A DNA stretch of 64,000 nucleotides, from assembly GCA_018714685.1 (NCBI GenBank), contig DVNC01000021.1:76758-140757 (forward strand). The letters run 5' to 3'. The stretch comes from Candidatus Scatocola faecipullorum (GTDB lineage: Bacteria > Pseudomonadota > Alphaproteobacteria > RF32 > CAG-239). Position numbers and translations under genes: made by a program. Within the stretch, counting starts at the first letter, position 1. Each line of letters starts with the position of its first letter. Under the pieces are notes generated by a model that was not told the DNA's origin, made no database searches, and saw only the letters and a program-made list of their open reading frames with translations. This document shows, piece after piece, positions 4,800 through 58,270 of the stretch.

Positions 4800-4898
4800 T
4801 TTTTCCTCGATTGGTGTTTATAAAGCGGAATTTGTGCTTTAATAAGTCTAACGCATTGAGTAGTATAACTATAATATTAAAAAATTAAAAATAAAGAA

Positions 4899-7763: not shown

Positions 7764-7765
7764 CA

Positions 7766-7800
7766 AAGAAAAGCCGTCTCGGGTGAGGCGGCTTTTTGTT
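7766..7800. terminator. Bidirectional terminator between convergent genes
   Basis: Hairpin agccgtctc-gggt-gaggcggct flanked by an A-rich run on the left and a T-rich run on the right. Confidence 0.5.
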
Positions 7801-9041: not shown

Positions 9042-9809
9042 ATGATCAGGAACAAAAACGTTTTAATTACCGGAGCCAGTTCAGGCATCGGCGAAGCTTT
9101 GGCCGTGTATTATGCCCAAAACGGCGCGGCCAATTTGTTTATCTGCGGGCGCAATGCGGAACGTCTGGCCAAAGTGCGCGAGGCATGCGAACGGTATGGG
9201 GCAAAGGTTTCTGCCGAAGTGCTGGACGTGACGCAGCGCGAGGCGGTTAAAAACTGGGTGGAGCGTTGCAATGTATCGGCGAATTTGAACATTGTGATTG
9301 CCAATGCCGGGACCGGGACAATCAATGAAACCGAAGAGGCGGTGCTGAACACTTTTAATACCAATGTCAACGGCGTGATTAATACGGTGCTTCCGGCGCT
9401 GGCGGCATACCGGAGCCGTCCGTCCCGTTATCACGGAGACATGGCGGTGGCGGTTATCAGCTCAATGGCCGGTTATCACGGTTTGCCGACCTGTCCGGCA
9501 TACAGTGCCAGCAAAGCCTGTGTGAAAGCCTGGGGCGAAGCGCTGCGTCCGGTTTTAAAACGTGAGGGAATCCGGATGAGCGTTGTTTGCCCGGGGTTTG
9601 TGCGGTCACGAATTACGGATCAGAACACCTGTCCGATGCCTTTTTTTATGGAGGCACCGCAGGCGGCGGAGATTATTGCCAGAGGTATTGAAGCCGATAA
9701 GGGGATTATTGCTTTTCCGTGGCCGTTGCGGCTGGCGGTGTGGCTGGCGTCGATTGTGCCGAACTGTCTGAGCGATTTGATATACGGCCGTCTGCCGCCG
9801 AAGGCATAG
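9042..9809 (+). CDS. Short-chain dehydrogenase/reductase (SDR)
   Basis: TGASSGIGEA cofactor motif, NAG, and YSASK catalytic motif. 255 aa. Confidence 0.85.
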   Translation: MIRNKNVLITGASSGIGEALAVYYAQNGAANLFICGRNAERLAKVREACERYGAKVSAEVLDVTQREAVKNWVERCNVSANLNIVIANAGTGTINETEEAVLNTFNTNVNGVINTVLPALAAYRSRPSRYHGDMAVAVISSMAGYHGLPTCPAYSASKACVKAWGEALRPVLKREGIRMSVVCPGFVRSRITDQNTCPMPFFMEAPQAAEIIARGIEADKGIIAFPWPLRLAVWLASIVPNCLSDLIYGRLPPKA

Positions 9810-21075: not shown

Positions 21076-21175
21076 GGCCGGCTAGTACAGATTTTGCGGG
21101 TCGGGAAAATGCTCATGTACTTCTGTGTACACTCCGCTTTTCCCACCCTGAAATCTTACTATCCGGCTCATATAA
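21076..21175. repeat. GTAC-centred palindromic element, copy B (nusA-ylxR spacer)
   Basis: ggccggctagtacagattttgcgggtcgggaaaatgctcatGTACttctGTGTACactccgcttttccc...gaaatcttactatccggctcatataa. Identical to copy G at most positions by eye. Confidence 0.75.
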
Positions 21176-24297: not shown

Positions 24298-24383
24298 GAA
24301 CTGGCAGGGAAATTGCAGGACGGAAGTGTCCTTCCGTACGTTTGTGTATGTTTCGGTACTTCCGCCTTTATTTTCCCAGCCTG
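24298..24383. repeat. GTAC-centred palindromic element, copy C (after infB)
   Basis: ctggcagggaaattgcaggacggaagtgtccttccGTACgtttGTGTATgtttcggtacttccgcctttattttcccagcc. Inner arms ggacggaagt / acttccgcc. A degenerate F-type copy may follow at about 24400-24500. Confidence 0.7.
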
Positions 24384-28349: not shown

Positions 28350-28472
28350 GATTGATTTTATGCGGTATCTAAAGCAAAAAATGCGAGTACGAAAAAATTC
28401 ATGTACTTTTATGTACATTAAAATTTTTTCGTCTCTGTTTTTCACTTTATCTACTCCCCTAAAATCAATCTT
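28348..28472. repeat. GTAC-centred palindromic element, copy D (rpsO 3' UTR)
   Basis: Perfect 13-nt terminal inverted repeat aagattgatttta / taaaatcaatctt. Inner perfect inverted repeat acgaaaaaatt / aattttttcgt. Centre catGTACttttatGTACa. The left end overlaps the rpsO TAA. Confidence 0.85.
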
Positions 28473-33611: not shown

Positions 33612-34616
33612 ATGGAAAAACAGCCGAAAGTATCGGTTATTATTCCGGTTTATAATGTTGAACAATATCTTTCCCGATGTTTGGACAGCGTTATCAGCCA
33701 GAATTTTAACGATATGGAAATTATTTGTATCAATGACGGTTCGAAAGATGCTTCTCTGCGAATTCTGGAAGAATATGCCGGCAAAGACAGCCGGATTGTT
33801 ATTATAGACAAGAAAAATGCAGGAGTTTCGGCCGCCCGGAATGACGGAATTGCCGCCGCAAAAGGTGAATATCTCGCGTTTTTGGACGGGGATGACTTTT
33901 GGGAGGCGGATTGTCTGGCAAAGATTTATCAGGAAGCCAAGCATAATCATTCCGATATCGTGATTTTTGCGCATAATCTATGGGAAAATGATCAAAAGAT
34001 TATCTGGGATAATCCCTTGCTTGAAGGTATTTGCGGGGAAATGGATTTAAATGACGAAGCTGCCATTTATGCTTTTTCTGCGGTTATCTGGAATAAACTG
34101 TATCGCAGGGATTTTATTCTGGCTAATGACATTGTTTTTCCCGTCGGGATTAAAATTGCCGAAGATACGATTTTCAGTATGGTTTGTTATTTTAGCAAAC
34201 CTGTCTGCCGGTATATTCCCGAGCATTTCTATAATTACCGGATGAATCGGAAAGATTCTGCAACAGCTGATTTGGGCTGTGTTCAAGGAGAAGTTGTTGC
34301 TTTTAAATATTTGGAGAAAATGCCGATTTATCAGTGTCAGCCTCAGACGGTTAAGTTGAAAATTGTTCATAAGTTTCTGAGCGGTTTGGAAGGGCATCTT
34401 AATCGTTTTGCTCTATGGGGCAATGAAGAATATATGAAAATCAGAGATGATTTTGTTGCTTATCTGAAAAAAGCTTATGGTTCTTCGGTTATAGAGAAAA
34501 TGACGCATTTTAAGAAGCTGAAACCGGCAGAGAAAATTTTCAGCGTCAAAAATTCTCACTGCAAGAAGTTTAAAATTATTCGTTTTCTGGGGCTGACGTT
34601 TAAAATAAAAAGATAG
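33612..34616 (+). CDS. Glycosyltransferase family 2
   Basis: VSVIIPVYNVEQYLSRCLDSVISQNFNDMEIICINDGSKD...FLDGDD is the GT-A/GT2 N-terminal domain with a DxD motif. Confidence 0.85.
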   Translation: MEKQPKVSVIIPVYNVEQYLSRCLDSVISQNFNDMEIICINDGSKDASLRILEEYAGKDSRIVIIDKKNAGVSAARNDGIAAAKGEYLAFLDGDDFWEADCLAKIYQEAKHNHSDIVIFAHNLWENDQKIIWDNPLLEGICGEMDLNDEAAIYAFSAVIWNKLYRRDFILANDIVFPVGIKIAEDTIFSMVCYFSKPVCRYIPEHFYNYRMNRKDSATADLGCVQGEVVAFKYLEKMPIYQCQPQTVKLKIVHKFLSGLEGHLNRFALWGNEEYMKIRDDFVAYLKKAYGSSVIEKMTHFKKLKPAEKIFSVKNSHCKKFKIIRFLGLTFKIKR

Positions 34617-34758
34617 CTCCGGCAGTTTTGCGGCGTTTGGCGCGGCAGGCGATTTATGCGGTTTCGGACAAAATAAACCGAAACAACAATAAAAGGTTTT
34701 AATTTAAAATAATTTAGTTATTATCTCCTCTACAGAGTCTTGTTCCGAGGAGATGATT

Positions 34759-35829
34759 ATGTCCCAGCCCTTAGTTTCAGTTATCATTCCCATTTACAAA
34801 GTTGAAGAGTTTCTGCCGGATTGTTTGGAATCGGTCATTCATCAGACATACAGCGATTTGGAAATTATCTGTGTCAATGACGGTTCGCCGGACCGTTGTG
34901 AAGACATTCTTAAAGATTATGCCATGCTTGACCGCCGGATTAAAGTGATTAACAAAGTCAACGGCGGTTTGTCTTCGGCGCGGAATGCCGCTTTGCCGGT
35001 TGCTCAGGGGGAATATGTCTTTTTTCTTGATTCCGACGATTGGCTGAGTTTGGATTGTATTGAAAATTTGGTTAAGGATATGTTGCGGAGCAAGGCCGAC
35101 ATTGCTTGTGTTCATGATATTTTGTCTTATTATCAGCCGAAGCGAATCGATCGGCAGCGGATGCTTTCCGGGCATGAGTCCGGCACTTTTGAAATTACCA
35201 ACGAAATACTTAAACAATTGTGGGTGGTGGCCTGGGGAAAGCTTTACCGCCGCCAGACGCTGCTTGATCTGGGGATGAAGTTTCCCGAGGGATATATTTA
35301 TGAGGATGAGTATTTTCACCATGTGTTGCTGCCGCACTTGAAAAAAATCGTCATCAGTGACGGCGGTGCCTATTATTACCGCCAGCGGGACAATTCGATT
35401 ATGAGCAGCCGAAAACTGCGCAGCGGCAAAGATAATTTGGTTATTTTCCAGCGCATTTTTGACTATTATAAAGAGCAGCACTGGTTGGGTAAATTTGATT
35501 TGCCGGGGCGTATTTTGGTGACGGGATTTACCAATAACGAAAATCCGGCAGCTTATTATGAGCAGGTTAAAGCTTTGCTGCATAAGCTCGGCGTTTCTTA
35601 TGACGATATGGCCAGGAACGAACTGTTGAAAGGGTTGATGGAAAGCGCCGATTATAAGAGCTATTGCCGCTGCGAAACCTGTTGCAAGGTTAAAAAAGCG
35701 GTCAAAGGGATGCGCAAGTCTCTGTTGCGTTTGAAAATCGGACGCAAAACACATATTGCGCTGTTGGGGCTGACGCTGTTTCACAAAGCCAAAGGCGAAA
35801 GAACGGTTTTGTTCGGGTTTAAGCTGTAG
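34759..35829 (+). CDS. Glycosyltransferase family 2
   Basis: VSVIIPIYKVEEFLPDCLESVIHQTYSDLEIICVNDGSPD...FLDSDD. GAGGAG lies 6 nt before the ATG at 34759. Confidence 0.85.
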   Translation: MSQPLVSVIIPIYKVEEFLPDCLESVIHQTYSDLEIICVNDGSPDRCEDILKDYAMLDRRIKVINKVNGGLSSARNAALPVAQGEYVFFLDSDDWLSLDCIENLVKDMLRSKADIACVHDILSYYQPKRIDRQRMLSGHESGTFEITNEILKQLWVVAWGKLYRRQTLLDLGMKFPEGYIYEDEYFHHVLLPHLKKIVISDGGAYYYRQRDNSIMSSRKLRSGKDNLVIFQRIFDYYKEQHWLGKFDLPGRILVTGFTNNENPAAYYEQVKALLHKLGVSYDDMARNELLKGLMESADYKSYCRCETCCKVKKAVKGMRKSLLRLKIGRKTHIALLGLTLFHKAKGERTVLFGFKL

Positions 35830-35912: not shown

Positions 35913-37022
35913 ATGGGTTTTAATTGCGGAATCGTCGGTTTGCCGAATGTGGGAAAATCAACTTTGTTTAATGCCCTGACGCAGACCATTGCAGCGCAGG
36001 CGGCCAATTTTCCCTTTTGTACGATTGAGCCGAACACCGGACGGGTGGCCGTTCCCGATGCCCGGCTGGATAAACTGGCCGAGATTGTCAAACCGCGGAT
36101 GGTGACTCCGACACAGCTGGAATTTGTCGATATTGCCGGTTTGGTAAAGGGAGCCTCCAAAGGCGAGGGACTGGGTAATCAGTTTCTGGCCAATATCCGC
36201 GAGGTTGATGCGATTATTCACGTTTTACGCTGTTTTGAGAATGATAATATTACCCATGTCGAAGGGTCGGTTGACCCTATCCGCGATGCGGAAATCGTTG
36301 AAACCGAATTGATGATTGCCGATTTGGAATCACTGGAAAAGCGTTATGACCAGGTACAGAAAAAAGCCAAAACCGGCGAGAAGGAATATGTGGTGCGTGA
36401 GGCGGTCATGCGTCCGGTTATTGAGGCACTGAAGGCCGGAAAACCGGCTCGTACCGCTGCGCCGGCGCCAACGGAAAAAGATGCCTGCAAAGAATATAAA
36501 ATGCTGCAGCTGCTGACGGCCAAGCCGGTTTTGTATGTTTGCAACGTTGATGAAGATTCCGCCGCTACGGGCAATAAATTTTCAGATATGGTTATGACCA
36601 AAGCTGCTGCCGAAGGGGCGGGTGCGGTTATCATTTCCGCCGAAATCGAATCGGAAGTGGCGCAGCTGGAATCGGAAGAAGAGAAGAAGGAATTTCTTGC
36701 CTCTCTGGGGCTGGAAGAAACCGGTCTGGCAAAAATCATCCGGGCAGGTTACAAACTTTTGGGGCTGGAAACCTATTTTACCGCCGGGCCGAAAGAAGTG
36801 CGTGCCTGGACATTTCTGAAAGGTTCAAAAGCGCCGGTTTGTGCCGGTATCATTCACTCCGATTTTGAACGCGGTTTTATTCGTGCGGAAACGATTTCAT
36901 ACGATGACTTTGTCAAATACGGTTCCGAACAGGCCTGTAAAGATGCCGGTAAAATGCGTTCGGAAGGCAAAGATTATGTTGTAAAAGACGGGGATATGAT
37001 GAATTTCCTCTTCAATGTTTGA
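35913..37022 (+). CDS. ychF: Redox-regulated ATPase YchF
   Basis: [19 protein letters not shown]...[10 protein letters not shown] and the C-terminal TGS-like domain ending MNFLFNV. Confidence 0.97.
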
Positions 37023-37028: not shown

Positions 37029-37237
37029 TAAAGGCTTGTCATGCTTGTAATTTTTTCACTCGTGTAGCTGGATGTACACGTCGTTCAAAAGTTACTTCGC
37101 AGCACAAGCCTTTATCAAAATCAACGTTTAAAAGCTTGCCATACTTGTAATTTTTATTCGTGTAGCTGGATGTACACGTTGTTCAGAAGTTACTTCGCAG
37201 CATAAGCCTTTATTGAAATCAACGTTTAAAAGTTTGT
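37029..37237. repeat. Tandem duplication (about 2.1 copies of a 98-100 nt unit) of an F-type palindromic element
   Basis: Units start at 37029, 37129 and (partial) 37227. Each has arms aaggcttgt / acaagcctt (copy 2: ataagcctt) and centre gtgtagctggatGTACAcg. Confidence 0.85.
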
Positions 37238-37941: not shown

Positions 37942-38010
37942 TTAAAAGCTTGCGCTGAAGATGATTTGGAGCTATGGAGAAAGAAAACCATTCTGGAGAG
38001 GAGATTTAAA

Positions 38011-38487
38011 ATGCGTCTGGCGTTGTTTCAACCTGACATTCCGCAAAATACCGGCACATTATTGCGTCTTGGAGCATGTTTGGACATTGAGCTTGATATC
38101 ATAGAGCCGTGCGGGTTTATTTTCTCCGAGAGGACCTTAAAACGGGCGGGAATGGATTATCTGGACATGGTGAGATACCGTCGTCACCATTCCTGGGAGC
38201 ATTTTTTGCAATATCGGGCCGAGCATCCGGAAGAATACGGACGAATCGTGCTTTTGACAACACATGCCAGCGAGCCTTATTATAATTTTGAATTTCGGCC
38301 GAACGATATTATCCTGATGGGACGCGAATCGGCCGGCGTGCCGGAGGAAGTACATCAAACCGCCGATGCCCGCCTGCTGATTCCGATGAATCACAATGCA
38401 CGGTCAATCAATGTGGCCGTGTCGGCGGTGATGGTGGTGGGGGAGTGTCTTCGCCAAGTAAACGGTTTTCCTGCTATGGAGGATTAA
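38011..38487 (+). CDS. trmL: tRNA (cytidine/uridine-2'-O)-methyltransferase TrmL (SpoU/TrmH family)
   Basis: MRLALFQPDIPQNTGTLLRLGAC...LLMGRESAGVP...IPM...RSINVAVSA are the SPOUT knot motifs. GGAGAGGAG RBS. Confidence 0.9.
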   Translation: MRLALFQPDIPQNTGTLLRLGACLDIELDIIEPCGFIFSERTLKRAGMDYLDMVRYRRHHSWEHFLQYRAEHPEEYGRIVLLTTHASEPYYNFEFRPNDIILMGRESAGVPEEVHQTADARLLIPMNHNARSINVAVSAVMVVGECLRQVNGFPAMED

Positions 38488-38576
38488 TACAGATTTTGCG
38501 AGTGGGGAAATGCTCGTGTACTAAGGTGTACACTCCGCTTTCTCCTCTCTAAAATCTTATTACTCCTCTCATATAA
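38479..38576. repeat. GTAC-centred palindromic element, copy G (overlaps the trmL 3' end)
   Basis: ggaggattaatacagattttgcgagtggggaaatgctcgtGTACtaagGTGTACactccgctttctcctctctaaaatcttattactcctctcatataa. Confidence 0.8.
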
Positions 38577-40188: not shown

Positions 40189-40280
40189 GGGTAACTAATA
40201 CAGAAATATCAGGGCGGAAGTGTCCTCACGTACTAAAGTGTATGCTCCGGTACTTCCACCTTTATTTCTTATTATTTACC
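40189..40280. repeat. GTAC-centred palindromic element, copy H (after carD)
   Basis: Outer arms ggtaactaatacagaaata / tatttcttattatttacc, inner arms ggcggaagt / acttccacc, centre acGTACtaaaGTGTATg. Confidence 0.7.
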
Positions 40281-44136: not shown

Positions 44137-45108
44137 TTAATAAACGACTTTGGTTAAGTATAATCCGCAGGCAGGGGCGTTGACCCCGGCGGCGGCACGG
44201 TTCTTCGCCTCTAATATCCGTTTGACATCTTCGGGGTGCAAATGTCCGTCGCCGACCATCTTCAGCGTGCCAACCATATTACGCACTTGGTGGTGCAGGA
44301 AAGAGCGGGCTTCGACAATGAAATGAATTTCTTCTCCTCTGACCTCAATATCCAGTCTGTCCAGCGTTTTAACCGGGGATTTGGCCTGGCATGCCGCGGC
44401 GCGGAAAGAACTGAAATCATGGTGCCCGATAAGATAACCGGCTCCCTCACGCATTTTTTCAACATCCAAAGGCACCGGAACCCACCAAACCCGGTTTTTT
44501 TCCAATACGGCCGGAGCCCGGCGGTTAAGAATCCGGTAGAGGTAACCGCGTCCTCTGGCGCTGAAACGGGCATGGAAATCATTTCCGACTTTTTCAACCG
44601 CAATAACGCTGACCGGAGCTTCCATTTCGCGCAAACGGGCGTTTATCGCTTCCCGTAACTTCCAATCGACCAAATCTTCTTTTAAGTCGAAATGTGCAAC
44701 CTGAGCTGTGGCATGGACGCCGGCGTCTGTTCTTCCTGCTCCGGAAACAATGATTTTATCGGTCTTCTGCAGGCGTCTTCCGGTGCCCGCGTCCTCACGT
44801 ACGTCTATGTACGCTGCGGTTCTGCGCTCCGTGGAGCCACCAGCATAAGCCTCACTAAAATCATTGTTGAAAAAAGCATCGGTCTTCTGCAGGCGTCTTC
44901 CGGTGCCCGCCTCCTCATACAATTCTTGAATGGGGAAATCCTCTTCTGATTTTTCCTTGTTATTAAGAGAGCAGGTATCCGTGTCGTTGACAGGAGTGAA
45001 GCAGTTCAGGGCTTTTTGCAAATAGTCCTGCACCGAGGGGCCGTCCAGTTGTTCCTGCCAGCCGAGGAGGCTGGTTCCGTCATATTCGATTGTTATTTTG
45101 TAGCGCAT
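44137..45108 (-). CDS. truA: tRNA pseudouridine-38/39/40 synthase TruA carrying an in-frame repeat insertion
   Basis: MRYKITIEYDGTSLLGWQEQ...SVQ and the catalytic GAGRTDAGVHA. 323 aa, versus about 250-270 aa for TruA proteins I know. Confidence 0.9.
   Translation of the reverse strand: MRYKITIEYDGTSLLGWQEQLDGPSVQDYLQKALNCFTPVNDTDTCSLNNKEKSEEDFPIQELYEEAGTGRRLQKTDAFFNNDFSEAYAGGSTERRTAAYIDVREDAGTGRRLQKTDKIIVSGAGRTDAGVHATAQVAHFDLKEDLVDWKLREAINARLREMEAPVSVIAVEKVGNDFHARFSARGRGYLYRILNRRAPAVLEKNRVWWVPVPLDVEKMREGAGYLIGHHDFSSFRAAACQAKSPVKTLDRLDIEVRGEEIHFIVEARSFLHHQVRNMVGTLKMVGDGHLHPEDVKRILEAKNRAAAGVNAPACGLYLTKVVY
44747..44917. repeat. GTAC-centred palindromic element, copy I, plus a duplicated left arm, inside the truA ORF
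   Basis: Terminal inverted repeat acaatgatttta (44747) / taaaatcattgt (44856). Centre cacGTACgtctatGTACgctgcggt. An exact 33-nt repeat occurs at 44758-44790 and 44878-44910. Confidence 0.8.
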
Positions 45109-46199: not shown

Positions 46200-46358
46200 G
46201 AATTTTACCTCTAAAGTTAAGTTTATGCTGAAATTATTTGGTTTACTAATAGCAAATTTCTTGCTAAAAAGCTCTTAAAAAGATGTTACATATTGTTACA
46301 AAATGCAGCATTTACCCGTAACCCCTGGTTCTGTTAGCTTTTGATAAGGTTTACGCTG

Positions 46359-48140
46359 ATGGCGGATATGATTAAAAAAGTTCTAAGTGTTTCATTTTTG
46401 GTAATTTTGGCTTCGTGCCGTTCTGCTCCCGTAGCGCAAACCGGCGAAGCGGTCATTGAGCAGGAAACGGCCGTTATCAATCCCGAGCCGGTCAAGGGGC
46501 GGGTGGACGTTTACGAATCAATGGCGCGCAGCGTCAAGTACAATACCGGCGCCACCCTGCGCGAGCTGCGGAAGAAGGTGGTCTATGACAAAAACACCAA
46601 TCCGCGCAGCATTGTCAACAATATCCTTAAAATGAAGAACCTTAATCAGAATCCGCTGTATGACAGTTTGCGCGCGCTTGACTTTGCGATTATTTATGCT
46701 GCGGTCAATTTGAGCGACGACGAGCATTTTACCAGCGCCTATTTGAATGCCAAGGCTTCGCAGACTGCGGCTCTGGCTGCGATTAAGGCGCACAAGGACG
46801 CTTTGTTTGCACAGCGAAAGATTAAGGAAATCGAGCGCATGGTTAAGCGGGAGCAGCGCGAGGTCGATACGCTGAAAGCCAAGCAAGACCGCCTGGGTGT
46901 GCTGAACAGCGATGACGAGGCCTATAAAAAAGGGCTGGAGGTTGTTATCTATAAATTGTCGGAAATTAAGAAAAAGCTGGAGGAAGAAGTTGTCCTTTAC
47001 CGCCAGGTTACAAGGATTGACAGTGATAAGCTGACGCTGGAAGGACGCCGCTTTTATGAAATGGACGATTTGGACGCCGGGCTTAAGGCCGGTGATTTTC
47101 AGGCTTCGGCATTTGCAAACCGACAGGAATTCAAATTGGCGGACGAGCTGAACAGGCAATACAGTTATGAGCAGGTACGCACCATGCTGCGGCATGAGTA
47201 TCCGCAGGTGGAACGTCTGGAAATCAACGGTTTTGACATTGAGGATCCGGTTTATTTGAAAGAATTGCAGCAACGGGCCGATTTTCAGTCCAATTATCTG
47301 GCAGACAAGGTCAGACAGTATATGGAAGCCGGCAATGGCGGTGCCAGACGGGCACTGCGGCAGGAGGCCTTTGAAGAGATGGCGACGGCGATCATGACGC
47401 AGAATGAAGTGGCCTATAATGTGGTTATGCGGGCAGATTTGGATGATGAGGCGGTCAACAAAAGAATTGCCGAGCTGAAAAAAACGATAGCGGAAGGCGA
47501 AAAACGCTATCGTCCGGGCGTTAATCAGAAAATAGACCTGCTGGAACAGAAAACGGCTCTGATTAATTTAGAGCGGCAGGCCAGCCAGATTTTGGCCGAA
47601 AAGGCAATGGCAATCCGCGCCCTGTATTTTTATGCCGGATTTAATCCGTTTACACCCAAGCTGACGGAAGCGCCGGTCAAGGATATCAGCGGCAATTTGA
47701 AGGTCGGTTTTAACAAAGACGTGGTCGAAATGCTGGCGAAAAAAGTTCCGCAGCCGGAGACTCCGCTGAAAACGGAGAAAAACGACTGGGCCAAGCAGGA
47801 CAACTGGCTGGAAAAACTGCTGGAAGGAAAAGACAAACCGCAGAGCGAATCGGTCAATATACGGCGTTATGTCGGTAATTTCGAGCTTTATGAGGGGGCG
47901 GTCTATAACAAGCGCAAGATTATGCAGCTGGGCTCTTACCGGCAAAAGGAAAATGCGGATATGGACTGGAAGATGCTGAAAGAGCTTTATCCCGAACTGC
48001 GGGCATACAGTCCGGTGGTGGAAAAGGCACAAGTCAAGGGCGCGCCGATGTATCGCCTGATTATCAGACAGGAAAACGGAGGTCTGATGGATTTGTGCAA
48101 TAAGCTGCGGGCAGATAAAACGGACTGTCTGCTGCGTTAA
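46359..48140 (+). CDS. Coiled-coil lipoprotein with a C-terminal SPOR (peptidoglycan-binding) domain
   Basis: Lipobox LVILASCRS, a long helical/charged middle, and the C-terminus IMQLGSYRQKENADMDWKMLKE...APMYRLIIRQENGG...LCNKLRADKTDC, which fits the SPOR pattern. Confidence 0.7.
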   Translation: MADMIKKVLSVSFLVILASCRSAPVAQTGEAVIEQETAVINPEPVKGRVDVYESMARSVKYNTGATLRELRKKVVYDKNTNPRSIVNNILKMKNLNQNPLYDSLRALDFAIIYAAVNLSDDEHFTSAYLNAKASQTAALAAIKAHKDALFAQRKIKEIERMVKREQREVDTLKAKQDRLGVLNSDDEAYKKGLEVVIYKLSEIKKKLEEEVVLYRQVTRIDSDKLTLEGRRFYEMDDLDAGLKAGDFQASAFANRQEFKLADELNRQYSYEQVRTMLRHEYPQVERLEINGFDIEDPVYLKELQQRADFQSNYLADKVRQYMEAGNGGARRALRQEAFEEMATAIMTQNEVAYNVVMRADLDDEAVNKRIAELKKTIAEGEKRYRPGVNQKIDLLEQKTALINLERQASQILAEKAMAIRALYFYAGFNPFTPKLTEAPVKDISGNLKVGFNKDVVEMLAKKVPQPETPLKTEKNDWAKQDNWLEKLLEGKDKPQSESVNIRRYVGNFELYEGAVYNKRKIMQLGSYRQKENADMDWKMLKELYPELRAYSPVVEKAQVKGAPMYRLIIRQENGGLMDLCNKLRADKTDCLLR

Positions 48141-48147
48141 AAAATAT

Positions 48148-48176
48148 TTGTCAAAAGGCGGCAGATAAGTTAAAAT
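48148..48176 (+). promoter_or_regulatory. Candidate promoter of the pentapeptide/T4CP gene pair
   Basis: TTGTCA-N17-TAAAAT, 39 nt upstream of the ATG at 48215. Confidence 0.4.
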
Positions 48177-48214
48177 GGCGGTTAGTCTGTAAATTAGGGA
48201 GCTGGCGCGGTAAG

Positions 48215-49474
48215 ATGGCTGAGGACGAAAAGAATAATTTTGACGGAAGTCCGTCTCACAGAGAAAAAACGGCAGAAAAGAAGCGTTCCGATTATGCCGT
48301 CCGCAGCAAAATGCCGGAACGGGACGAGAATGAAGGCGCTGATACAGGGTTTTCCTGGAGTGCGGTGGCTCATCGGGACAGTGCGGCGAATGCCGCGGCG
48401 CTGGGACCGGATAATTTTATGTCTAACCGGATAGAATTCGGCGGCAAGAATCTTGAAAACGGCAAATTTGCCAATGAAAATTTTGAAAATGCCAATTTTT
48501 CGGTAGCAAACCTGAAAGGCGTCGATTTTTCCGGCGCAAACCTGAAAGGCGTCGATTTTTCCGGTGCCGATTTGAGCGATGCTAATCTTTCCGGTGCCGA
48601 TTTGAGCGGTGCCGTGCTTTCCAATGCGGTTCTGAAGCACACGAATTTCAGCGGGGCGGTTCTGAACGGAGTGGTTCTGACCGATGCCGATCTGGATAAT
48701 GCTATTTTGCTGGATATTACGATTGATGCCATTGCATTGGAAGATTTGCAGGAACTGGTCGAATATCTGGCTAAATATGCGCCGCATAAGCTTAATCTGG
48801 CCAAAATGAATCTGACGATGTTCAATTTGGCCAAAATCGATCTGAAGAATCTTAATTTGCGTGGGGTTGATTTTACCGGCTGCGATTTTACCGGCGTTAA
48901 TATCATGGAGCTTGATTTAAGCGAGTGTATTATTACGCCGCAGCAGATAGCCCAGGCTTTGGGGCGGGTGCCGAATGCCGAGGAACTGCGGCGGATTATG
49001 GCGCCGAAGGTTAAGCCGAAAGGGCCGAAGTCGCAGGGTATTGACCTGACCGATTTGTTTTTTGACAACGGCAAAGAAGCCGGTGTTTGGGAAACTGCGA
49101 AAGACAAAGGTATTTCCACCGCGAAGATTGTGGACATGATCAAGGCAGGGCACAAGGTTTATCGTCGGGTGGTCAAGCGTCCGGAAGGGAACAGGTTTGA
49201 AGCGGCGGCCAAAGAAAGCGCCGAACGCAAAGAAGCTCAGGTATCCAACTCCAATGAAGAACTCAAGAAAGTTTTGGAAGAAAACAAAAGGGCGCTGATT
49301 GAGAAACATAAGCGGGAGGAACTGGAAGCCCGCCGGAACAAAAAAATGGAGCTGGAACAGGCGCTGGCCCGGGAAAACGAACAGGAAAAAACGCCCGAAA
49401 AAACCGAACAGCCAAAAATCAGGCCGTTGACGGCGGAGCGGATTGCGTCGTTCCGCGACCGTTCAAGAGATTAG
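48215..49474 (+). CDS. Pentapeptide-repeat protein with a Lys/Glu-rich C-terminal tail
   Basis: Two blocks of A(D/N)LxG-type pentapeptides: NFSVANLKGVDFSGANLKGVDFSGADLSDANLSGADLSGAVLSNAVL... and LNLRGVDFTGCDFTGVNIMELDLSEC. Confidence 0.85.
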   Translation: MAEDEKNNFDGSPSHREKTAEKKRSDYAVRSKMPERDENEGADTGFSWSAVAHRDSAANAAALGPDNFMSNRIEFGGKNLENGKFANENFENANFSVANLKGVDFSGANLKGVDFSGADLSDANLSGADLSGAVLSNAVLKHTNFSGAVLNGVVLTDADLDNAILLDITIDAIALEDLQELVEYLAKYAPHKLNLAKMNLTMFNLAKIDLKNLNLRGVDFTGCDFTGVNIMELDLSECIITPQQIAQALGRVPNAEELRRIMAPKVKPKGPKSQGIDLTDLFFDNGKEAGVWETAKDKGISTAKIVDMIKAGHKVYRRVVKRPEGNRFEAAAKESAERKEAQVSNSNEELKKVLEENKRALIEKHKREELEARRNKKMELEQALARENEQEKTPEKTEQPKIRPLTAERIASFRDRSRD

Positions 49475-49480
49475 CCGGCA

Positions 49481-51850
49481 ATGAGAGAAAAACTTTATCT
49501 GGAATCCGATAGTTCTTTTTTCAGACGTTTTGTGCTGCTGCCGATTATCGTTTTGCTGATGGTGGTCGGTTTTGTCCTGTCGGCGGTGGTTTTTCTGAGC
49601 CTTTCCCATGTGATGTTTTATGGTTTCAATGAACAGTCGCTGGCAGATTTGGGGCATTTCTGGCTGAGTTGTCTGACCCGTCCGCAAAGGCTGTGGGAGG
49701 CTTATGCCGAGTGGTTTTACGTTTTCCGGCTGGCGGCGGCTTATCACAAGCTTGTGCCGGCCAGCTTTATGCCTTTGCTGGGGCCGCTGCTGTTTATCGG
49801 CGCAACGGTGTGGGCTTATGTCAAGAGTCCGAGTTCGTTTAAGCTGTGGTATCGACTGAAAAATCATTATGCCAAATTTGAAGATGTTCAGAAAATGGGC
49901 ATTTTGAACGGAACTCTGTTTGCCTTGGGGCGTTTTCAGAATCAGGTGCTGCGGTTGTGTCGTCCGCTGTCGGTTTTTGTCTGGGGCGGTGAGGGGTTAG
50001 GCAAAAGCAGCTGCGTTTCCCTTCCGTCGGTTCTCGAATCTGATGATACCTGTCTGGCGGTGGCCGACAGCACGGGAATTCTGGCAAAATATTCAAGCGG
50101 TTACCGGTCGCGGTTGGGTAAGGTTTTTTATTTTAACTGGGGTTTGACCGATGTGCCGGAAAAGGGCGAATTCTGGCCGCGTTGGAATCCGGTGTCGCCT
50201 AAGGATCTGCCGGTTCGCGGCGAGGGGCGTCTGGCTTATATCAAAATGTTGGTTTCCTGCCTTTTCCCTTCCGAAAAGCATAATTTTTGGGAAAAAATCA
50301 GTCAGACTGCTTTGGAAGGATTGCTGCTGTTTTATGTTTCCAAAATCGAACAGGCCATGGCCAATGACTATTTTCTCAGCGGTTTGCTTGAAAAAGGCCG
50401 GATAGCCAAAGAAGACAGAGAACTTTTGCAGAGCTATTACCGGGCAATGAATCCGGAATTGGCGGCGCCGGCGCTGAAAGCTTTGGAGAGCGGGAAACTG
50501 ACGCTGGACAATTATCTGCCGGTGGGCAGTTGGGAAAATGTTTCCGAATCCTGGCGGGGAAAGGAGTTTTGTCTGCCGATGTTTGCCGACTGCCTGATGC
50601 AGCGTTATTTTGCAATTACACAGGAAGACGAAGAAAAAGCCGCGGTCGGCGGATTTAAGGTTATGCTGGGCGAGTTTATCAAAGAAGCGCAGGTTTTCGG
50701 TTATGACCGCCGCGCCATTCAGGTTATGCAGCAGTTGTACTATATGACCCGCAAACAGCGGCGGATTATCTTTACCATGCTGATGGCTCCGCTGACGGTT
50801 TTCCGCAAGAGCACCATCCGGTCGCGCACCAGTTTGAGCGATTTTTCCCTGAACCAGCTGCGCGGCATTTGTGAAGACGGCAGTTGGCGGGTTACCACGC
50901 TCTACACCGTGGCGGATGCGGTGAAATCTTCCGGGTTTATGAGCCGCTTTCTGATTGATATGCTTATTGCGCATAATCTGCGCCCGCGTTCGGAGGAAGG
51001 GCCTTTTGCGCTGGCTTTTGTTCTGGATGATTTCGAACGTTTGCCGAAACTTTCAAAGCTGGCGGCAGGACTGACACAAGGGCCCGAACTCAGAATGTCT
51101 TTCCTGATGCTGACGGACGGGCTGCACCTGATTCAGAACAAATACGGCATGGAAGAGCTGGAAGATATTATCGGCAACAGTTCGGTCAAGCTGATGATGG
51201 CCGAAGACAAGCGTCGGATGAGCGAGCATTTTAACAAACTGGCGGTTTACGGAACCCGTTCGGTTCAGATTCCGGCGGTGGATGCGGGAGCCTTTTACAA
51301 GGTTAAGAAAGGGTTGGCCGATGCCAATTATTATCACCGAATTGCCAGAGATTTGATGAATCATCCGAAGACGGTATCCTTTGACAAATCGCATTATCTG
51401 CTTTTGGTGGAAGGTTTTTATCATCTGCCGGTAAATATTTCTTCCAATAATTTTCTTCGCGACGGCAAGCTGAAAAGCAAGGCTGCCTGCGGTGCCAGTT
51501 ATATTCTTGATGAAACGCTGGCGGCGCAGCGCAATGTGCAGGATGTGGATGCGCCGGATTTGATTGCGGTTTTGCAGGAGGGCGGCATCAATATTGAAAA
51601 AGAGGAAGACGTCGATATTTATCTGGAAGACAAGTATGACGAGGTGGTCGAAACGCTGGAGGAAGATTCCGACGTGCAGACGGTGTGGGCGGAGGAAATT
51701 TCAAACCGGTGGAATTCGGCGCCCTCGGCGGCAGAAAATCCGCAGGATCTGAGGGTGAAGAATGATGACTGGTGGCTGGACGAGGAGGCTTTTAAAACGG
51801 CGGACAGCGATAATGCGAATCCTTTTGAAAGCTTGAACGAAAAGAATTAA
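49481..51850 (+). CDS. VirD4/TraG-family type IV coupling protein-like ATPase (divergent, orphan)
   Basis: Two N-terminal TM helices, Walker A VWGGEGLGKSSCVSLPSVLE, the RWNPV block, Walker B FVLDDFERLPKL, then LMLTDGLHLIQNKYG, and an acidic C-terminal tail. Starts 6 nt after the previous stop. Confidence 0.75.
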   Translation: MREKLYLESDSSFFRRFVLLPIIVLLMVVGFVLSAVVFLSLSHVMFYGFNEQSLADLGHFWLSCLTRPQRLWEAYAEWFYVFRLAAAYHKLVPASFMPLLGPLLFIGATVWAYVKSPSSFKLWYRLKNHYAKFEDVQKMGILNGTLFALGRFQNQVLRLCRPLSVFVWGGEGLGKSSCVSLPSVLESDDTCLAVADSTGILAKYSSGYRSRLGKVFYFNWGLTDVPEKGEFWPRWNPVSPKDLPVRGEGRLAYIKMLVSCLFPSEKHNFWEKISQTALEGLLLFYVSKIEQAMANDYFLSGLLEKGRIAKEDRELLQSYYRAMNPELAAPALKALESGKLTLDNYLPVGSWENVSESWRGKEFCLPMFADCLMQRYFAITQEDEEKAAVGGFKVMLGEFIKEAQVFGYDRRAIQVMQQLYYMTRKQRRIIFTMLMAPLTVFRKSTIRSRTSLSDFSLNQLRGICEDGSWRVTTLYTVADAVKSSGFMSRFLIDMLIAHNLRPRSEEGPFALAFVLDDFERLPKLSKLAAGLTQGPELRMSFLMLTDGLHLIQNKYGMEELEDIIGNSSVKLMMAEDKRRMSEHFNKLAVYGTRSVQIPAVDAGAFYKVKKGLADANYYHRIARDLMNHPKTVSFDKSHYLLLVEGFYHLPVNISSNNFLRDGKLKSKAACGASYILDETLAAQRNVQDVDAPDLIAVLQEGGINIEKEEDVDIYLEDKYDEVVETLEEDSDVQTVWAEEISNRWNSAPSAAENPQDLRVKNDDWWLDEEAFKTADSDNANPFESLNEKN

Positions 51851-51910: not shown

Positions 51911-53227
51911 ATGATGGAAGAGACCCTTTTTTCAAATAACGTCAAACGTCCTTTGGCTGACCGCCTGCGTCCGCAAAGCCTTAAAGAGGTTGTGGGGCAG
52001 GAACATATTGTCGGCGATGATGCGCCGTTGGGACGAATGATTAAAAGCGGCAAGATTACCTCCTTTATTCTCTGGGGGCCTCCCGGCTGCGGAAAAACAA
52101 CAATCGCCCGTTTGATTGCCGAGAATACAAATTTATATTTTGAGCAGATTTCCGCCGTTTTTTCCGGCGTGGCCGATTTGAAACGGGTGTTTCAGTATGC
52201 GCAGGAACGTCGGGCCACGCAGGGAAAAGGCACTTTGCTGTTTGTCGATGAAATTCACAGGTTTAACAAATCGCAGCAGGACGGCTTTCTGCCCTATGTG
52301 GAAGACGGCACGATTATTCTGGTCGGAGCAACGACGGAGAATCCTTCTTTTGAACTTAACGCGGCGTTGCTGTCGCGGTGTCAGGTTTTTGTTTTGAACC
52401 GTCTGAACGAAGATAATTTTGAAGAACTGCTGGCGCGGGCAGAACGGGAGACCGGACGGAAGCTTCCGGTTGACGGAGAAGCGCGGCAGATTATGAAATC
52501 GACCGCCGACGGGGACGGTCGGTATATCCTTAATTTGGCGGAAAGTGTCTGGGCTTATGCCAAAGAAGGAGAGGTTTTTGACAAAGACAGCATTCTGAAA
52601 GTCATCCGTTCACGGGCACCGATTTATGACAAGGGGCGTGACGGTCACTATAACCTGATTTCGGCAGTGCATAAATCGCTGCGCGGTTCCGATGTCGATG
52701 CGGCGTTATATTGGGCAGCGCGTATGCTGGAGGCGGGAGAGGATCCGAAATATCTGCTGCGGCGGCTGACCCGTTTTGCCGTTGAAGACGTTTCGTTGGC
52801 AGAGCCTAATGCCGTAACTCAGGCCATTGCCTGCTGGGAGACATACGAGCGGCTTGGTTCGCCGGAAGGCGATTTGGCGATTATGCAGTTGGTGGCTTAT
52901 CTGGCGACGGCGCCGAAATCCGTGGGCGTTTACAAAGCGATGTATAAAGCCCGGGAACTTGCCCGCAAGACCGGTTCGCTGATGCCGCCGAAAAATATTC
53001 TGAACGCGCCGACCAAACTGATGAAACAATTGGGTTACAGCGAAGGATATGAATATGATCCCGATTGCGAAGACGGCTTTTCCGGTGCCAATTACTTTCC
53101 CGACGGCATGAGTCGGGTTAAGATTTATTTTCCGGTTGACCGCGGCTTTGAACGGGAGATTAAGAAGAGGGTGGAGTATTTTGATAAACTCCGGAAGGAA
53201 AAGCAAAATCGCAAGGCGGAAAACTAA
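51911..53227 (+). CDS. rarA: Replication-associated recombination protein A (AAA+)
   Basis: LADRLRPQSLKEVVGQEHI...LWGPPGCGKTTIARLIA...LFVDEIHRFNK plus the MgsA C-terminal domain. Confidence 0.95.
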   Translation: MMEETLFSNNVKRPLADRLRPQSLKEVVGQEHIVGDDAPLGRMIKSGKITSFILWGPPGCGKTTIARLIAENTNLYFEQISAVFSGVADLKRVFQYAQERRATQGKGTLLFVDEIHRFNKSQQDGFLPYVEDGTIILVGATTENPSFELNAALLSRCQVFVLNRLNEDNFEELLARAERETGRKLPVDGEARQIMKSTADGDGRYILNLAESVWAYAKEGEVFDKDSILKVIRSRAPIYDKGRDGHYNLISAVHKSLRGSDVDAALYWAARMLEAGEDPKYLLRRLTRFAVEDVSLAEPNAVTQAIACWETYERLGSPEGDLAIMQLVAYLATAPKSVGVYKAMYKARELARKTGSLMPPKNILNAPTKLMKQLGYSEGYEYDPDCEDGFSGANYFPDGMSRVKIYFPVDRGFEREIKKRVEYFDKLRKEKQNRKAEN

Positions 53228-53309
53228 TACAGATTTTGCGAGCAGCCAACAGCCTCACGTACTTCTGTGTACGCTGCGGTGTTGTCTCTCTGAAATCTTA
53301 TTATTTTCC
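53218..53309. repeat. GTAC-centred palindromic element, copy J (overlaps the rarA 3' end)
   Basis: ggaaaactaatacagattttgcgagcagccaacagcctcacGTACttctGTGTACgctgcggtgttgtctctctgaaatcttattattttcc. Confidence 0.8.
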
Positions 53310-53347
53310 TCGCCTATCGACATGAGGGATTTTAAGGACAAGCACAA

Positions 53348-58194: not shown

Positions 58195-58270
58195 GGGCTT
58201 TCTCTGCGGGTTAAAAGTGTCCTTACCTACTTCTGTGTACGCTACGGTACTTTTGACGACTGTTATTCGA
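58195..58270. repeat. GTAC-centred palindromic element, copy K (after acyP, degenerate)
   Basis: gggctttctctgcgggttaaaagtgtccttaccTACttctGTGTACgctacggtacttttgacgactg. The centre is nearly identical to copy J. Confidence 0.55.

Follow-up and report, generated by a model that had tools for sequence, protein, structure and literature searches.

An RPE-1-related palindromic repeat carried in frame by the truA gene of a gut alphaproteobacterium

TruA is the tRNA pseudouridine 38-40 synthase, a tRNA-modifying enzyme. In the window analyzed here (the whole stretch of 64,000 nucleotides), the truA gene encodes a long additional segment shortly before the catalytic motif, which raises the question of where this segment came from and whether it serves the enzyme. 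The DNA belongs to an uncultured alphaproteobacterium of the human gut with 47% G+C and a genome of about 1.86 Mb. The source labels name an 'Alphaproteobacteria bacterium' MAG and human-gut metagenome contigs, not Rickettsia or Rickettsiales. The nearest species representatives are gut MAGs with inconsistent names (Azospirillum sp., Acetobacter sp., Rickettsiales bacterium UMGS1453). The insert is most probably old, tolerated selfish palindromic repeat DNA and not a domain acquired for function. The features concerned are collected in Table 1.

Table 1. Positions of the truA gene, its insert and the related intergenic repeats in the window.
Feature	Position	Strand	Basis or remark
truA ORF, 323 aa, open	44137..45108	minus	Profile and PDB matches
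Whole extra segment, aa 36-116, 81 residues	44761..45003	minus	phmmer alignment to 1DJ0/2NQP
RPE-1-like hairpin element, 123 nt	44746..44868	+	13-nt inverted repeats at ends, fold
Direct repeat copy 1, hairpin left arm, aa 105-117, EDAGTGRRLQKTD	44758..44797	+	Repeat search
Direct repeat copy 2, additional left arm, aa 65-77, EEAGTGRRLQKTD	44878..44917	+	Repeat search
Conserved apex, CCTCACGTAC-GTCTAT-GTACGCTGCGGT	44793..44820	+	Common to intergenic, RPE-1 and other hairpins
Codons 91-110, GSTERRTAAYIDVREDAGTG	44779..44838	minus	NCBIfam RPE1 match, profile positions 14-33 of 48
Second palindrome type, degraded remnant, encodes LNNKEKSEEDFPIQELYEE	44911..44967	minus	Comparison with L087, L090
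120-nt (40-codon) unit missing in most conspecific strains	44798..44917	+	Equivalent placement 44758-44877 (repeat ambiguity)
Short intergenic member	21076..21168	+	Family model, fold z = -8.4
Short intergenic member	24303..24381	+	Family model, fold
Short intergenic member	38475..38573	+	Gives TAA stop to ORF 37966..38487
Short intergenic member	40190..40280	+	Family model, fold
Short family member after rarA	53218..53309	+	Left end (CTAATACAG) gives rarA its stop codon
Truncated/degenerate intergenic member	58210..58257	+	Family model; fold not significant

The extra segment in truA

The ORF scored 174.2 bits against TIGR00071 (NCBIfam TruA), above the curated cut-off of 142.85, and matched Pfam PseudoU_synth_1 (PF01416) with an E-value of 1.8e-37 and the PDB entries 1DJ0/2NQP, by phmmer, with an E-value of about 1e-43. 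In the phmmer alignment, query residues 5-35 paired with residues 14-44 of E. coli TruA and query residues 117-323 with residues 49-252 (2NQP numbering). Between these blocks, 81 residues (243 nt) stand in the window protein and 4 in E. coli TruA, a net gain of 77. An earlier note on this DNA, made from its letters, had described an open frame of 323 aa with about 82 residues where characterized TruA proteins have about ten, and an insertion adding about 70-80 residues; both the translation and the alignment bear this out. The orthologue comparison that the note had proposed for fixing the borders set the extra segment at residues 36-116, and truA proteins of insertion-free relatives are 246-253 aa long. 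More distant gut relatives have about 5 residues at the site (..GFSHQ/KIEVFGAGRTD) and a length of 246 aa.

According to the alignment, the segment is located between helix alpha-1 and the K-I-I-V strand (strand 2) preceding the catalytic loop, and the site lies 11 residues N-terminal of the catalytic Asp. The catalytic motif GAGRTDAGVH occupies residues 123-132, with Asp128 corresponding to Asp60 of E. coli; the motif is unchanged in 25 truA relatives, with the Asp intact. The proposal that the K-I-I-V codons belong to the element and not to truA was not kept as a firm claim; insertion-free relatives read K-I-E-V, yet the copy in a hemW-like gene (see below) ends in KIIV.

An AF2 model built from a 25-sequence clade alignment gave pLDDT values below 30 throughout the segment. 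The model was poor overall (pLDDT 53.5, pTM 0.42) and was used solely to say that the insert is without confident structure; the segment may form a disordered surface loop. A promoter and terminator scan of the truA locus gave no signal exceeding shuffle expectation, and a tRNA/tmRNA scan gave no match.

Hairpin anatomy and kinship with RPE-1

The hairpin is bounded by arms of 13 nt at 44746-44758 and 44856-44868 that are 100% complementary and each exceed by one base the terminal inverted repeats first described at 44747-44758 and 44856-44867. Folding of positions 44740-44875 produced one long hairpin on either strand (z about -3.8), and none of 200 shuffles was equally stable. The duplicated left arm was recovered at the same coordinates as before, as an exact 33-mer at 44758-44790 and 44878-44910, and could be extended to 40 nt at 98% identity. 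The spacing of the two copies is 120 nt, so that the peptide E(E/D)AGTGRRLQKTD is encoded twice, as the earlier note had read it. Even with up to 3 mismatches allowed, the window holds no third match to the 33-mer, and shuffles likewise expect none.

The view that one complete element had been inserted holds for the RPE-1-like hairpin, but a second, degraded palindrome also contributes to the 77 residues. In its intact form (CCTCCCCTTAATGTTAAGGGGAGG..GGAGGGG..CCTCCCC, with the peptide PPLNVKGRLGG..), this second palindrome is present in truA of loci L004 and L087 and in hemW of locus L090. When nt 142-362 of window truA are aligned locally with nt 346-566 of L090 hemW, the alignment spans the second-palindrome stretch. 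The element had also been called antisense to the gene. The frame is indeed open through it, but the term is mere convention, as truA reads the strand and frame of the RPE1 peptide. On the coding strand, the apex translates as T-A-A-Y-I-D-V-R-E-D.

The same apex occurs in eight further hairpins of the window, six of them clear copies and two degenerate. The near-identity of the element's centre to the copy after rarA, already noticed from the sequence, amounts to two mismatches between cacgtacgtctatgtacgctgcggt (44796-44820) and positions 53256-53280, with none such expected by chance. The six intergenic copies yielded a model that matched the truA copy over 35 nt only (44790-44824, E 2.9e-6). 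Because the arms differ from those of the intergenic copies, the truA copy is a distinct long subtype, set against the short intergenic ones. Stop codons in the short copies close the RPE1-peptide frame, and their orientation relative to transcription is opposite to that of the truA copy. The homologue of the rarA site in L086 is empty. As a separate observation, two genes upstream of intergenic copies take their stop codon from the left end of the repeat.

RPE-1, a Rickettsia palindromic element, was reportedly described by Ogata et al. (2000, 2002), and we know of no transposase for it. Against the RPE1 profile (TIGR01045), the window copy scored 22.2-24.7 bits, below the cut-off of 30 (E 1e-4, or 1.7e-5 for the insert alone). 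The profile matched 12 of the 25 truA relatives with a best E-value of 1.1e-8, and relatives reached 29.3-30.0 bits. Genuine RPE-1 copies scored 54-74 bits across nearly the whole profile. They were found on low-G+C contigs by a search with the truA apex, so that all 20 specified apex bases are present in them; one lies in frame within a LeuRS. Beyond the 25-nt search apex, the left 16-28 nt of the RPE-1 copies are similar to the truA copy (p 0.001-0.03), while on the right such similarity is confined to one copy of five and the outer arms are unalignable. The earlier note had likened the locus to the in-frame RPE insertions of Rickettsia. The TIGR01045 matches, together with the identical apex bases in genuine RPE-1 copies, support this parallel as probable homology beyond analogy.

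Both elements are dispersed palindromic repeats of 100-150 nt forming one long hairpin (123 nt in truA), and both stand in frame, in one particular open frame, in housekeeping genes, at what in truA is a predicted loop. They have the same 25-nt apex, about 55-60 nt around it appear alignable, and the peptide core (S)TE(R)xTAAYIxVREDASTG matches. In contrast to RPE-1, the truA element resides in a human-gut alphaproteobacterium of 47% G+C and not in Rickettsia, has unrelated arms, and reaches its sub-cut-off profile score over the central 20 of 48 positions. It also differs in being bracketed by direct repeats of 27-40 nt, in its within-species tandem-unit variation, and in being joined to a second palindrome type. 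In Rickettsia, insertions of RPE-1, -2 and -3 usually keep the frame and sit at solvent-exposed sites (PMC3767692, PMC10969869).

Length alleles and evolution of the insert

Alleles differing by one whole unit were observed within the species. Loci L001 and L002 (protein P0003, 283 aa) contain one copy of the direct repeat and exactly 120 nt fewer than the window allele, with 99% identity elsewhere. The 283-aa allele is the common form, P0003 alone occurring on 351 contigs and in 635 index blocks. Expressed in units, most conspecific strains carry 0.3, the window 1.3, and related species 0.3-3, some of these species having the second palindrome type beside RPE-1-like units. The truA relatives range from 250 to 391 aa, and the reading frame was kept in every lineage despite the length changes.

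The insertion is old and common to a clade with truA identity down to about 68%. Recent change concerns the 120-nt unit, which is acquired or deleted between the direct repeats. In a truA-pattern scan of contigs, the 80 loci listed were mostly distant alphaproteobacterial truA genes free of the insert, and the element was present in none of them (nhmmer); these loci supplied the ancestral loop sequence. No transposase or other mobilizing function was identified for the element, and no conspecific strain without the whole element was found; for these reasons, mobility is inferred from distribution.

A related locus exposes the duplicated target. In L206, TTGGCGCGGCAGGCTTCCACCACAAC(T/C) occurs twice, flanking an insert of 108 nt, whereas in L005, the empty allele, the homologous native codons occur a single time. 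Compared side by side, this filled/empty pair displays a 27-nt duplication of native truA codons. Native sequence is confined to the outermost stems and the direct repeats. The notion that the arms are wholly templated by each target was not retained as a general rule, as other subfamilies keep their arms between copies.

A hemW-like ORF carries the same module in frame at its own 5' end, with the RPE part 95-98% identical and the copy stopping exactly at the end of the inverted repeat. The hemW-like gene and truA have a common block of about 225 nt. One predicted protein (P0123) fuses the N-terminal part of the hemW locus with the truA body; another, P0124 from the representative search, was a spurious repeat-protein match and was discarded. 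The earlier statement that the family can colonize coding sequence thus stands for the in-frame copies in truA and the hemW-like gene, but in-frame copies of the long type were found in these two genes only.

Taken as selfish repeat DNA, the insert would have arisen when the clade ancestor acquired an RPE-1-related hairpin and a second, now degraded palindrome in the short loop that joins helix alpha-1 to the strand leading to the catalytic Asp. On entry, about 27 nt of native truA codons would have been copied into a direct repeat. Because the RPE1-peptide frame is open and every added length is divisible by three, translation is proposed to turn the insert into a hydrophilic surface loop, probably disordered, which TruA tolerates. 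The locus would thereafter have behaved as a repeat with a period of 120-129 nt, from which whole units were added or removed; the position of a hairpin between direct repeats of 27-40 nt favors replication slippage or unequal recombination. The complementarity of the arms would have been kept by paired changes, owing either to selection for the hairpin, as DNA or as RNA, or to arm-to-arm templated correction.

Such paired changes were evident. Among 12 truA and hemW copies, 13 of 40 consensus pairs showed compensatory double changes, compared with 4.8 +/- 1.3 in shuffles (none of 500 reaching the observed value), slid pairings gave at most 3, and 95.6% of cells were paired. These pairs lie in a coding region, third positions are much more conserved there than in the gene body, and invariant G-U pairs occur on the coding-sense strand, which would also fit a hairpin that is a functional cis-acting RNA or DNA structure (for instance one governing the stability or translation of the mRNA, or an antisense transcript), the peptide being a by-product. 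The kinship of related high-G+C hairpins with the Rfam sRNA sX9 (PMC3300014) points the same way. Nevertheless, this explanation is unlikely: most conspecific strains do without the apex-containing unit and nothing else has changed, copy number and content vary freely among species, and the intergenic copies face the opposite way relative to transcription. Moreover, quasi-palindrome arm-to-arm correction can give covariation without function, and the window copies match no Rfam family, even at E <= 10 in the search with 231 nt.

The codon positions separate the insert from the enzyme around it. In the truA body, between-lineage identity at codon positions 1, 2 and 3 was about 0.9, 0.95 and 0.45-0.59, respectively, which is the pattern of purifying selection at the protein level. 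In the insert, the corresponding values were 0.82-0.88, 0.85-0.94 and 0.79-0.98, with no codon-position pattern; the insert evolves in a DNA-like rather than a codon-like manner. This tells against an adaptive protein segment, such as an extra loop for binding tRNA or a partner, kept by protein-level selection, even though the frame survives large length changes in all lineages, the TAAYIDVRED core is conserved throughout the clade, and the site lies just ahead of the catalytic Asp. Most conspecific strains and several species also lack the segment or have less of it, the AF2 prediction gives it no structure, and the same peptide-coding DNA is found in an unrelated hemW-like gene and in noncoding spacers; we consider an adaptive origin very unlikely.

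If the segment were just a tandem duplication or minisatellite born locally from truA sequence, palindromic by chance and without any tie to a dispersed element, this would account for exact repeats of 33-40 nt, a period of 120 nt, whole-unit variation in strains and species, and a direct repeat derived partly from native truA codons. Such an origin is nonetheless highly improbable, since the apex recurs in eight window hairpins, the hemW-like gene, RPE-1 and hundreds of metagenomic hairpins, the match to the RPE1 HMM is significant, and tandem amplification explains copy number and not origin. Finally, an assembly artefact or a decaying truA pseudogene is barely credible: assemblers can be misled by the block of about 225 nt that truA has in common with the hemW-like gene, as in the P0123 join, but truA lies on both flanks of the window copy, reads are longer than the 33-40-nt repeats, no catalytic residue is missing from the intact ORF, the gene body is under purifying selection, and independent assemblies (P0001, L138) carrying the long allele with private substitutions confirm that it is no artefact.

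Related repeat families and wider meaning

Selfish palindromic repeat DNA of this kind can be compared with several known systems. Slipped mispairing between direct repeats that flank a palindrome is known from the precise excision of Tn10 and Tn5. The likeness lies in a hairpin lost or gained as a unit, with one repeat copy left, as between the 323-aa and 283-aa alleles; Tn10/Tn5-type deletion is, however, a mechanism and not a family, and for truA it would be deduced from end products only.

The Wolbachia palindromic elements are said to have been described by Ogata et al. in 2005. Together with RPE-4, -6 and -7, they resemble the truA element as protein-coding palindromic repeats in Alphaproteobacteria, but they belong to another sequence family, recognized by an ATGAC motif. 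Their occupation of the same site in orthologues marks ancient insertions (PMC3767692).

REP/BIME, ERIC, Correia, RUP and BOX sequences and MITEs are small non-autonomous hairpin repeats, some of which fuse in frame with ORFs and can provide stop codons or terminators (PMC10969869). MITEs have fixed terminal inverted repeats derived from a parent IS and target duplications of 2-10 bp, whereas truA-type elements keep the apex, have locus-specific outer stems and show target duplications of 27 nt or longer. The outermost stems were found to differ from copy to copy and to include native flanking codons, and the duplications measured 27 nt (L206), 40 nt (window and L088) and about 55 nt (rarA site). 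A non-exhaustive look at the window and the loci revealed no parent IS. A blastn comparison of high-G+C and rickettsial-type hairpins with PLSDB plasmids gave no match, and a full-text literature search for the apex sequence returned unrelated primer matches only.

The truA apex recurs in hairpins from genomes of 32-77% G+C, including hundreds of metagenomic hairpins. High-G+C metagenomic hairpins retrieved with this apex scored 45-50 bits against sX9 (RF02228), whose gathering score is 44, and the apex hairpin motif (AUGUAC-N-GUACACU-CCGGU..) is the same. In contrast to the truA element, the sX9 sRNA strand is opposite to the sense of the RPE1 peptide, sX9 belongs to Gammaproteobacteria, and the window copies do not match its model. 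We know of no in-frame coding copies of sX9. Rfam scans found no family for the window copies, with sX9 absent at E <= 5 across the window; positions 44700-44930 (231 nt) and 53190-53340 gave no Rfam match at E <= 10, sX9 included. The sX9 RNA is a 75-nt Xanthomonas sRNA detected by Northern blot (PMC3300014), and its family has many copies (PMC9029176).

A tentative reading, to which we give somewhat less than even credence, is that RPE-1 may not be peculiar to Rickettsia but a single branch of a very widespread superfamily of long hairpins, to which the abundant Xanthomonas family sX9 and the gut-alphaproteobacterial copies would also belong. Such a superfamily could be defined by an apex of about 25-55 nt (..CGGAGCGCAG-ACC-GCAGCGTACA-N5-GTACGTGAGGA..CGAGCACCG..) and could extend over Alpha- and Gammaproteobacteria of 32-77% G+C. 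Its arms could vary with the host and, in part, with the local target, with outer stems made of native codons and their inverse copies, and its insertions could be bracketed by long target duplications. If this is true, the shared apex unites RPE-1, sX9 and the window hairpins and points to a conserved recognition motif. A mechanism that recognizes the apex and rebuilds the arms would then be implied, different from classical cut-and-paste transposition; fold-back or template-switch synthesis and a structure-specific enzyme would be candidates.

In-frame palindromic repeats have been seen as a curiosity of Rickettsia and Wolbachia tied to intracellular genome decay. The truA locus is a known kind of selfish insertion, newly placed outside Rickettsia in an abundant gut alphaproteobacterium. 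Here the process is caught in motion, with alleles one 40-codon unit apart coexisting in the population, and a filled/empty pair exposes the long target duplication. The locus offers a natural system for the tolerance of an enzyme toward large loop insertions beside its active site, and because thousands of metagenomic alleles exist, the origin and upkeep of such repeats can be studied.

The extra segment of TruA and its length alleles

The minus-strand ORF at 44137..45108 (323 aa) encodes TruA, as its matches in Pfam, NCBIfam and PDB sequence searches show. Against E. coli TruA (2NQP numbering), phmmer aligned two blocks, query residues 5-35 with 14-44 and 117-323 with 49-252, leaving 81 residues (36-116, nt 44761-45003) where E. 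coli TruA has four. At the same position, more distant gut alphaproteobacterial TruA proteins (246 aa) have about five residues (..GFSHQ followed by KIEVFGAGRTD). The site of insertion falls after helix alpha-1 and before the strand ahead of the catalytic loop, and the catalytic Asp (residue 128) is found 11 residues past the end of the extra segment. The insert peptide is hydrophilic, with pLDDT <30 in a predicted model that is poor overall.

The earlier note had interpreted this segment as an in-frame palindromic insertion that mirrors the RPE (Rickettsia palindromic element) insertions of Rickettsia; the finding is real and the interpretation essentially right. The inverted and direct repeats that it described were recovered (see table), as was the centre of the element, of which 25 nt recur after rarA with two mismatches; none of the three is expected in shuffled sequence. 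The stretch 44740-44875 folds into a single long hairpin on either strand (z ~ -3.8).

Synteny around truA was kept in every fetched locus. The closest relatives, 99% identical to the window TruA outside the insert, carry a 283-aa form, which is the commoner allele (P0003 alone on 351 contigs). Long alleles of 323 aa were found independently, and the two repeat copies of one of them, P0001, have diverged, so that the long form is no fresh duplication. Window residues 48-66 (nt 44911-44967) align with a second palindrome type, of which they are a degraded copy. Taken with the length states of the relatives, this marks the truA locus as an old insertion site that is now a length-variable repeat.

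Two further observations concern the surroundings of truA. Directly 5' of the gene, another subfamily of these hairpins (arms AGATAGAGTGATTTGAAAGGCAAAAGTACC...) is present in relatives as one to four copies in tandem, also where truA itself has no insert (L005). The neighbours at 46341-51850, a 599-aa protein without Pfam match, a pentapeptide-repeat protein and a VirD4/TraG-like type IV coupling protein, keep their order in all relatives fetched.

Positions of the repeats, alleles and matches (window, fetched loci L and protein matches P)
Sequence	Feature	Position	Strand	Remark
Window	inverted repeat, truA insert	44746-44758 / 44856-44868		13 nt, perfect
Window	direct repeat, truA insert	44758-44790 / 44878-44910		exact 33-mer; reaches 40 nt at 98%, spacing 120 nt
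Window	six intergenic hairpin copies	~21076, 24303, 38475, 40190, 53218, 58210	+	
Window	two degenerate copies	near 790-855 and 28370-28440	+	
P0003 and ~20 similar proteins	truA			283 aa; exactly 120 nt absent, one direct-repeat copy kept
P0001, L138	truA			323 aa; independent long alleles
L003	truA			338 aa; two full 123-nt units
L004	truA			391 aa; three 129-nt units around different palindrome (CCTCCCCTTAATGxTAAGGGGAGG ..)
L087	truA			345 aa; both palindrome types, repeat copy after each
L089	truA			265 aa; half apex and one arm
L207	truA			273 aa; apex with reduced arms
L005	truA			253 aa; insert absent
L005	tandem hairpins, other subfamily	9700-9995		
L206	tandem hairpins, other subfamily	2560-3000		
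L088	tandem hairpins, other subfamily	9930-10060		
L102	hemW-like ORF	6518-7753		411 aa
L090	hemW-like ORF	6236-7882		548 aa; DUF559-like (endonuclease) N-terminal part fused
L196	hemW-like gene			two units
L119	apex hairpin	332-454		example from L090-L205
L191	apex hairpin	4847-4969		example from L090-L205
L192, L165, L123	apex hairpins			examples from L090-L205
L119	sX9 match	325-401	-	Rfam RF02228
L117	sX9 match	3791-3867	-	Rfam RF02228
L163	sX9 match	914-995	+	Rfam RF02228

Related hairpins, RPE-1 and sX9

Every copy of the hairpin family elsewhere in the window lies on the plus strand, and the six clear ones stand directly 3' of the stop codons of plus-strand genes. Five of these six are near-perfect hairpins of 80-100 nt (z -4 to -8); the copy at 58210 is a truncated one without a significant fold (z -0.6). 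The stem sequence varies from copy to copy while complementarity is kept. The left end of the hairpin, CTAATACAG, holds the TAA stop codon of rarA (53224-53227) and also supplies that of ORF 37966..38487 (at 38485-38487). In the relative L086 the rarA site is empty (1949-1952), the rarA C-terminus is different (..KKQQGQ, then stop) and crcB lies 2 nt further on, which indicates that the insertions rewrote the C-termini of genes. An nhmmer model of the six intergenic copies matched the truA insert (E 2.9e-6) over only 35 nt (44790-44824), so that the truA copy represents a longer subtype whose arms are distinct. Rfam gave no match for any window copy.

Two other repeats were noted in the window. 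A tandem pair (37029-37236; unit ~98-100 nt, 37053-37138 and 37151-37236, 91% identical) lies in the spacer after ORF 35913..37022 and is unrelated to the hairpin family. A 123-nt direct repeat (33621-33743 / 34765-34887, 71% identity) lies within the adjacent ORFs 33612..34616 and 34753..35829, which are probably paralogous neighbours.

Residues 91-110 of the window TruA, GSTERRTAAYIDVREDAGTG, matched the "palindromic element RPE1 domain" of NCBIfam (TIGR01045) at 22-25 bits, under the cut-off of 30; the E-value was 1e-4 when the full-length protein was searched and 1.7e-5 when only the insert was. The model also matched 12 of 25 truA relatives (best E 1.1e-8). When metagenomes were scanned with the 20 specified bases of the hairpin apex, GCAGCGTACANNNNNGTACGTGAGG, at least 116 stretches were matched. 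Among the matches listed, some low-G+C contigs carry genuine RPE-1 copies: L147 (74 bits, in frame in LeuRS, ..GDTERSTAAYIKVREDASTGSTPKLPLEASY..), L145 (54 bits) and L186 (61 bits). To the left of the apex, 16-28 nt outside the scanned bases resemble the truA copy (p 0.001-0.03); to the right this was so in only one of five RPE-1 copies, and their outer arms could not be aligned with those of the truA copy. The truA element thus seems to have a core of ~55-60 nt in common with RPE-1.

Published work describes RPEs as specific to Rickettsia, apart from one family that Wolbachia shares; RPE-1, -2 and -3 are said to be frequent, to lie in frame and to be exposed to solvent (PMC3767692, PMC1779305, PMC10969869). 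The truA element differs in that it falls under the curated cut-off, and is therefore no strict member of RPE-1, and in that its host is not Rickettsia; according to source labels and contig names, the host is an uncultured human-gut alphaproteobacterium (47% G+C, genome ~1.86 Mb).

The apex was carried by at least 92 distinct metagenomic sequences, on contigs of 32-77% G+C. In almost all listed carriers it tops a hairpin of 120-170 nt, the arms of which differ completely and follow the base composition of the host. One contig (64% G+C) encodes a LigA 72-74% identical to that of Wenzhouxiangellaceae (Gammaproteobacteria). This spread suggests a superfamily far wider than Rickettsia.

The high-G+C apex hairpins reach 45-50 bits with the model of Rfam RF02228, the Xanthomonas sRNA sX9, whose gathering score is 44. 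The matching strand is the one opposite to the RPE1-peptide sense; on it the sX9 model starts at the apex and extends along one arm, so that RPE-1 and sX9 seem to have a common core. sX9, an RNA of 75 nt, has been verified by Northern blot and is among the most often annotated sRNAs because of its many copies (PMC3300014, PMC9029176). No report linking sX9 with RPE-1 was found in the part of the literature covered.

Evolution of the insert and its second host gene

In the truA body, between-lineage identity at codon positions 1, 2 and 3 was ~0.9, 0.95 and 0.45-0.59, the classical coding pattern. In the insert, the corresponding values were 0.82-0.88, 0.85-0.94 and 0.79-0.98; the three positions are equally conserved there, and third positions are far better kept than in the surrounding gene. 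Such equal conservation argues against selection on the insert peptide, and fits either constraint at the nucleotide level or insert copies that share a more recent ancestor than the genes do.

In an alignment of twelve long-type copies from truA and a hemW-like gene, the consensus hairpin comprised 40 pairs, 13 of which showed compensatory double changes. Shuffling yielded 4.8 +/- 1.3 pairs (0 of 500 shuffles reached 13), and sliding the pairing by 1-3 columns at most three. The outermost stem of the truA hairpin covaries with truA's own codons (left and right arms: window, AACAATGATTTTA and TAAAATCATTGTT; L086, AACAACGATTTTA and TAAAATCGTTGTT; L087, GACAATGATTTTA and TAAAATCATTGTC; L088, ATAAATCGGGTT and AACCCGATTTAT); in L088 the downstream arm consists of native truA codons (..RFI..).

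All catalytic and core residues are preserved, and the truA body evolves under purifying selection in the insert-bearing lineages; strains that have the 40-codon unit coexist with strains that lack it. On these sequence data, the insert would most economically be read as a tolerated, essentially neutral passenger loop.

In human-gut contigs, a hemW-like radical-SAM ORF that directly follows hslU also carries the truA-type module, in frame and at its 5' end, in the order second palindrome, repeat copy, RPE-1-like unit, repeat copy and KIIV. Its RPE part is 95-98% identical to the window truA copy, and the end of the block common to both genes coincides exactly with that of the inverted repeat. 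Some contigs have it fused to a DUF559-like endonuclease N-terminal part; the presence of this part and the unit number are polymorphic among contigs.

An exhaustive HMMER search of the 60-aa insert against 1.84 billion cluster representatives returned six proteins at E <= 1e-3. These included a truA fragment (P0122), a short truA allele (P0126), a hemW-like fusion ORF (P0121) and a hemW-like protein of another lineage with two RPE-1-like units and different arms (P0125). P0123, a 115-aa chimera, runs from the hemW-locus N-terminus MEKQLITYSRQLRSNQTNA through an RPE-like unit into the truA body, KIIVSGAGRTD.., and is either a true recombinant of the two loci or a metagenome misassembly via the common ~225-nt block. 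P0124 was rejected as a spurious match to an unrelated repeat protein. Accordingly, the long subtype does colonise coding sequence, but narrowly: truA and the hemW-like gene were the two host genes found.

Target duplication and proposed mode of change

In the filled locus L206, a 108-nt insert is bracketed by two copies of a native truA stretch, TTGGCGCGGCAGGCTTCCACCACAAC(T/C); the stretch codes for LARQASTTT, in the loop and the end of helix 1, and the left arm of the insert is complementary to it. The homologous stretch is present once in the empty locus L005. In the window and L088 the direct repeat, 40 nt long, takes in element sequence as well. The layout of the rarA-crcB spacer is the same, with a duplicated left arm: the rarA 3' end and left arm recur downstream of the element in L002, L004, L087 and L089, and the outer stem holds native rarA coding sequence and its inverse copy. 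In L004, ~125 nt of unrelated sequence split the apex loop of the hairpin after rarA (..CGTACTTCTG/CCAATTCCGACT...GCAGAACTCC/GGTGTCGCC..), which may be a nested insertion.

A classical MITE fits poorly, since the outer stems vary and the target duplications are long; no transposase was seen in the window or the fetched loci. We infer that the hairpin element would arrive with a long target duplication, and that the hairpin, once bracketed by direct repeats, would gain or lose whole units by replication slippage or unequal recombination, a textbook route for the deletion of palindromes between direct repeats. Such events would account precisely for how the 323-aa and 283-aa alleles differ.

The truA element is a protein-coding palindromic repeat of RPE type, a kind already known. 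Its interest is moderate and threefold: the host of this RPE-type element is non-rickettsial, the unit number is still polymorphic with the target duplication visible, and the element has its apex in common with both RPE-1 and sX9, a hint of a far larger and older superfamily.
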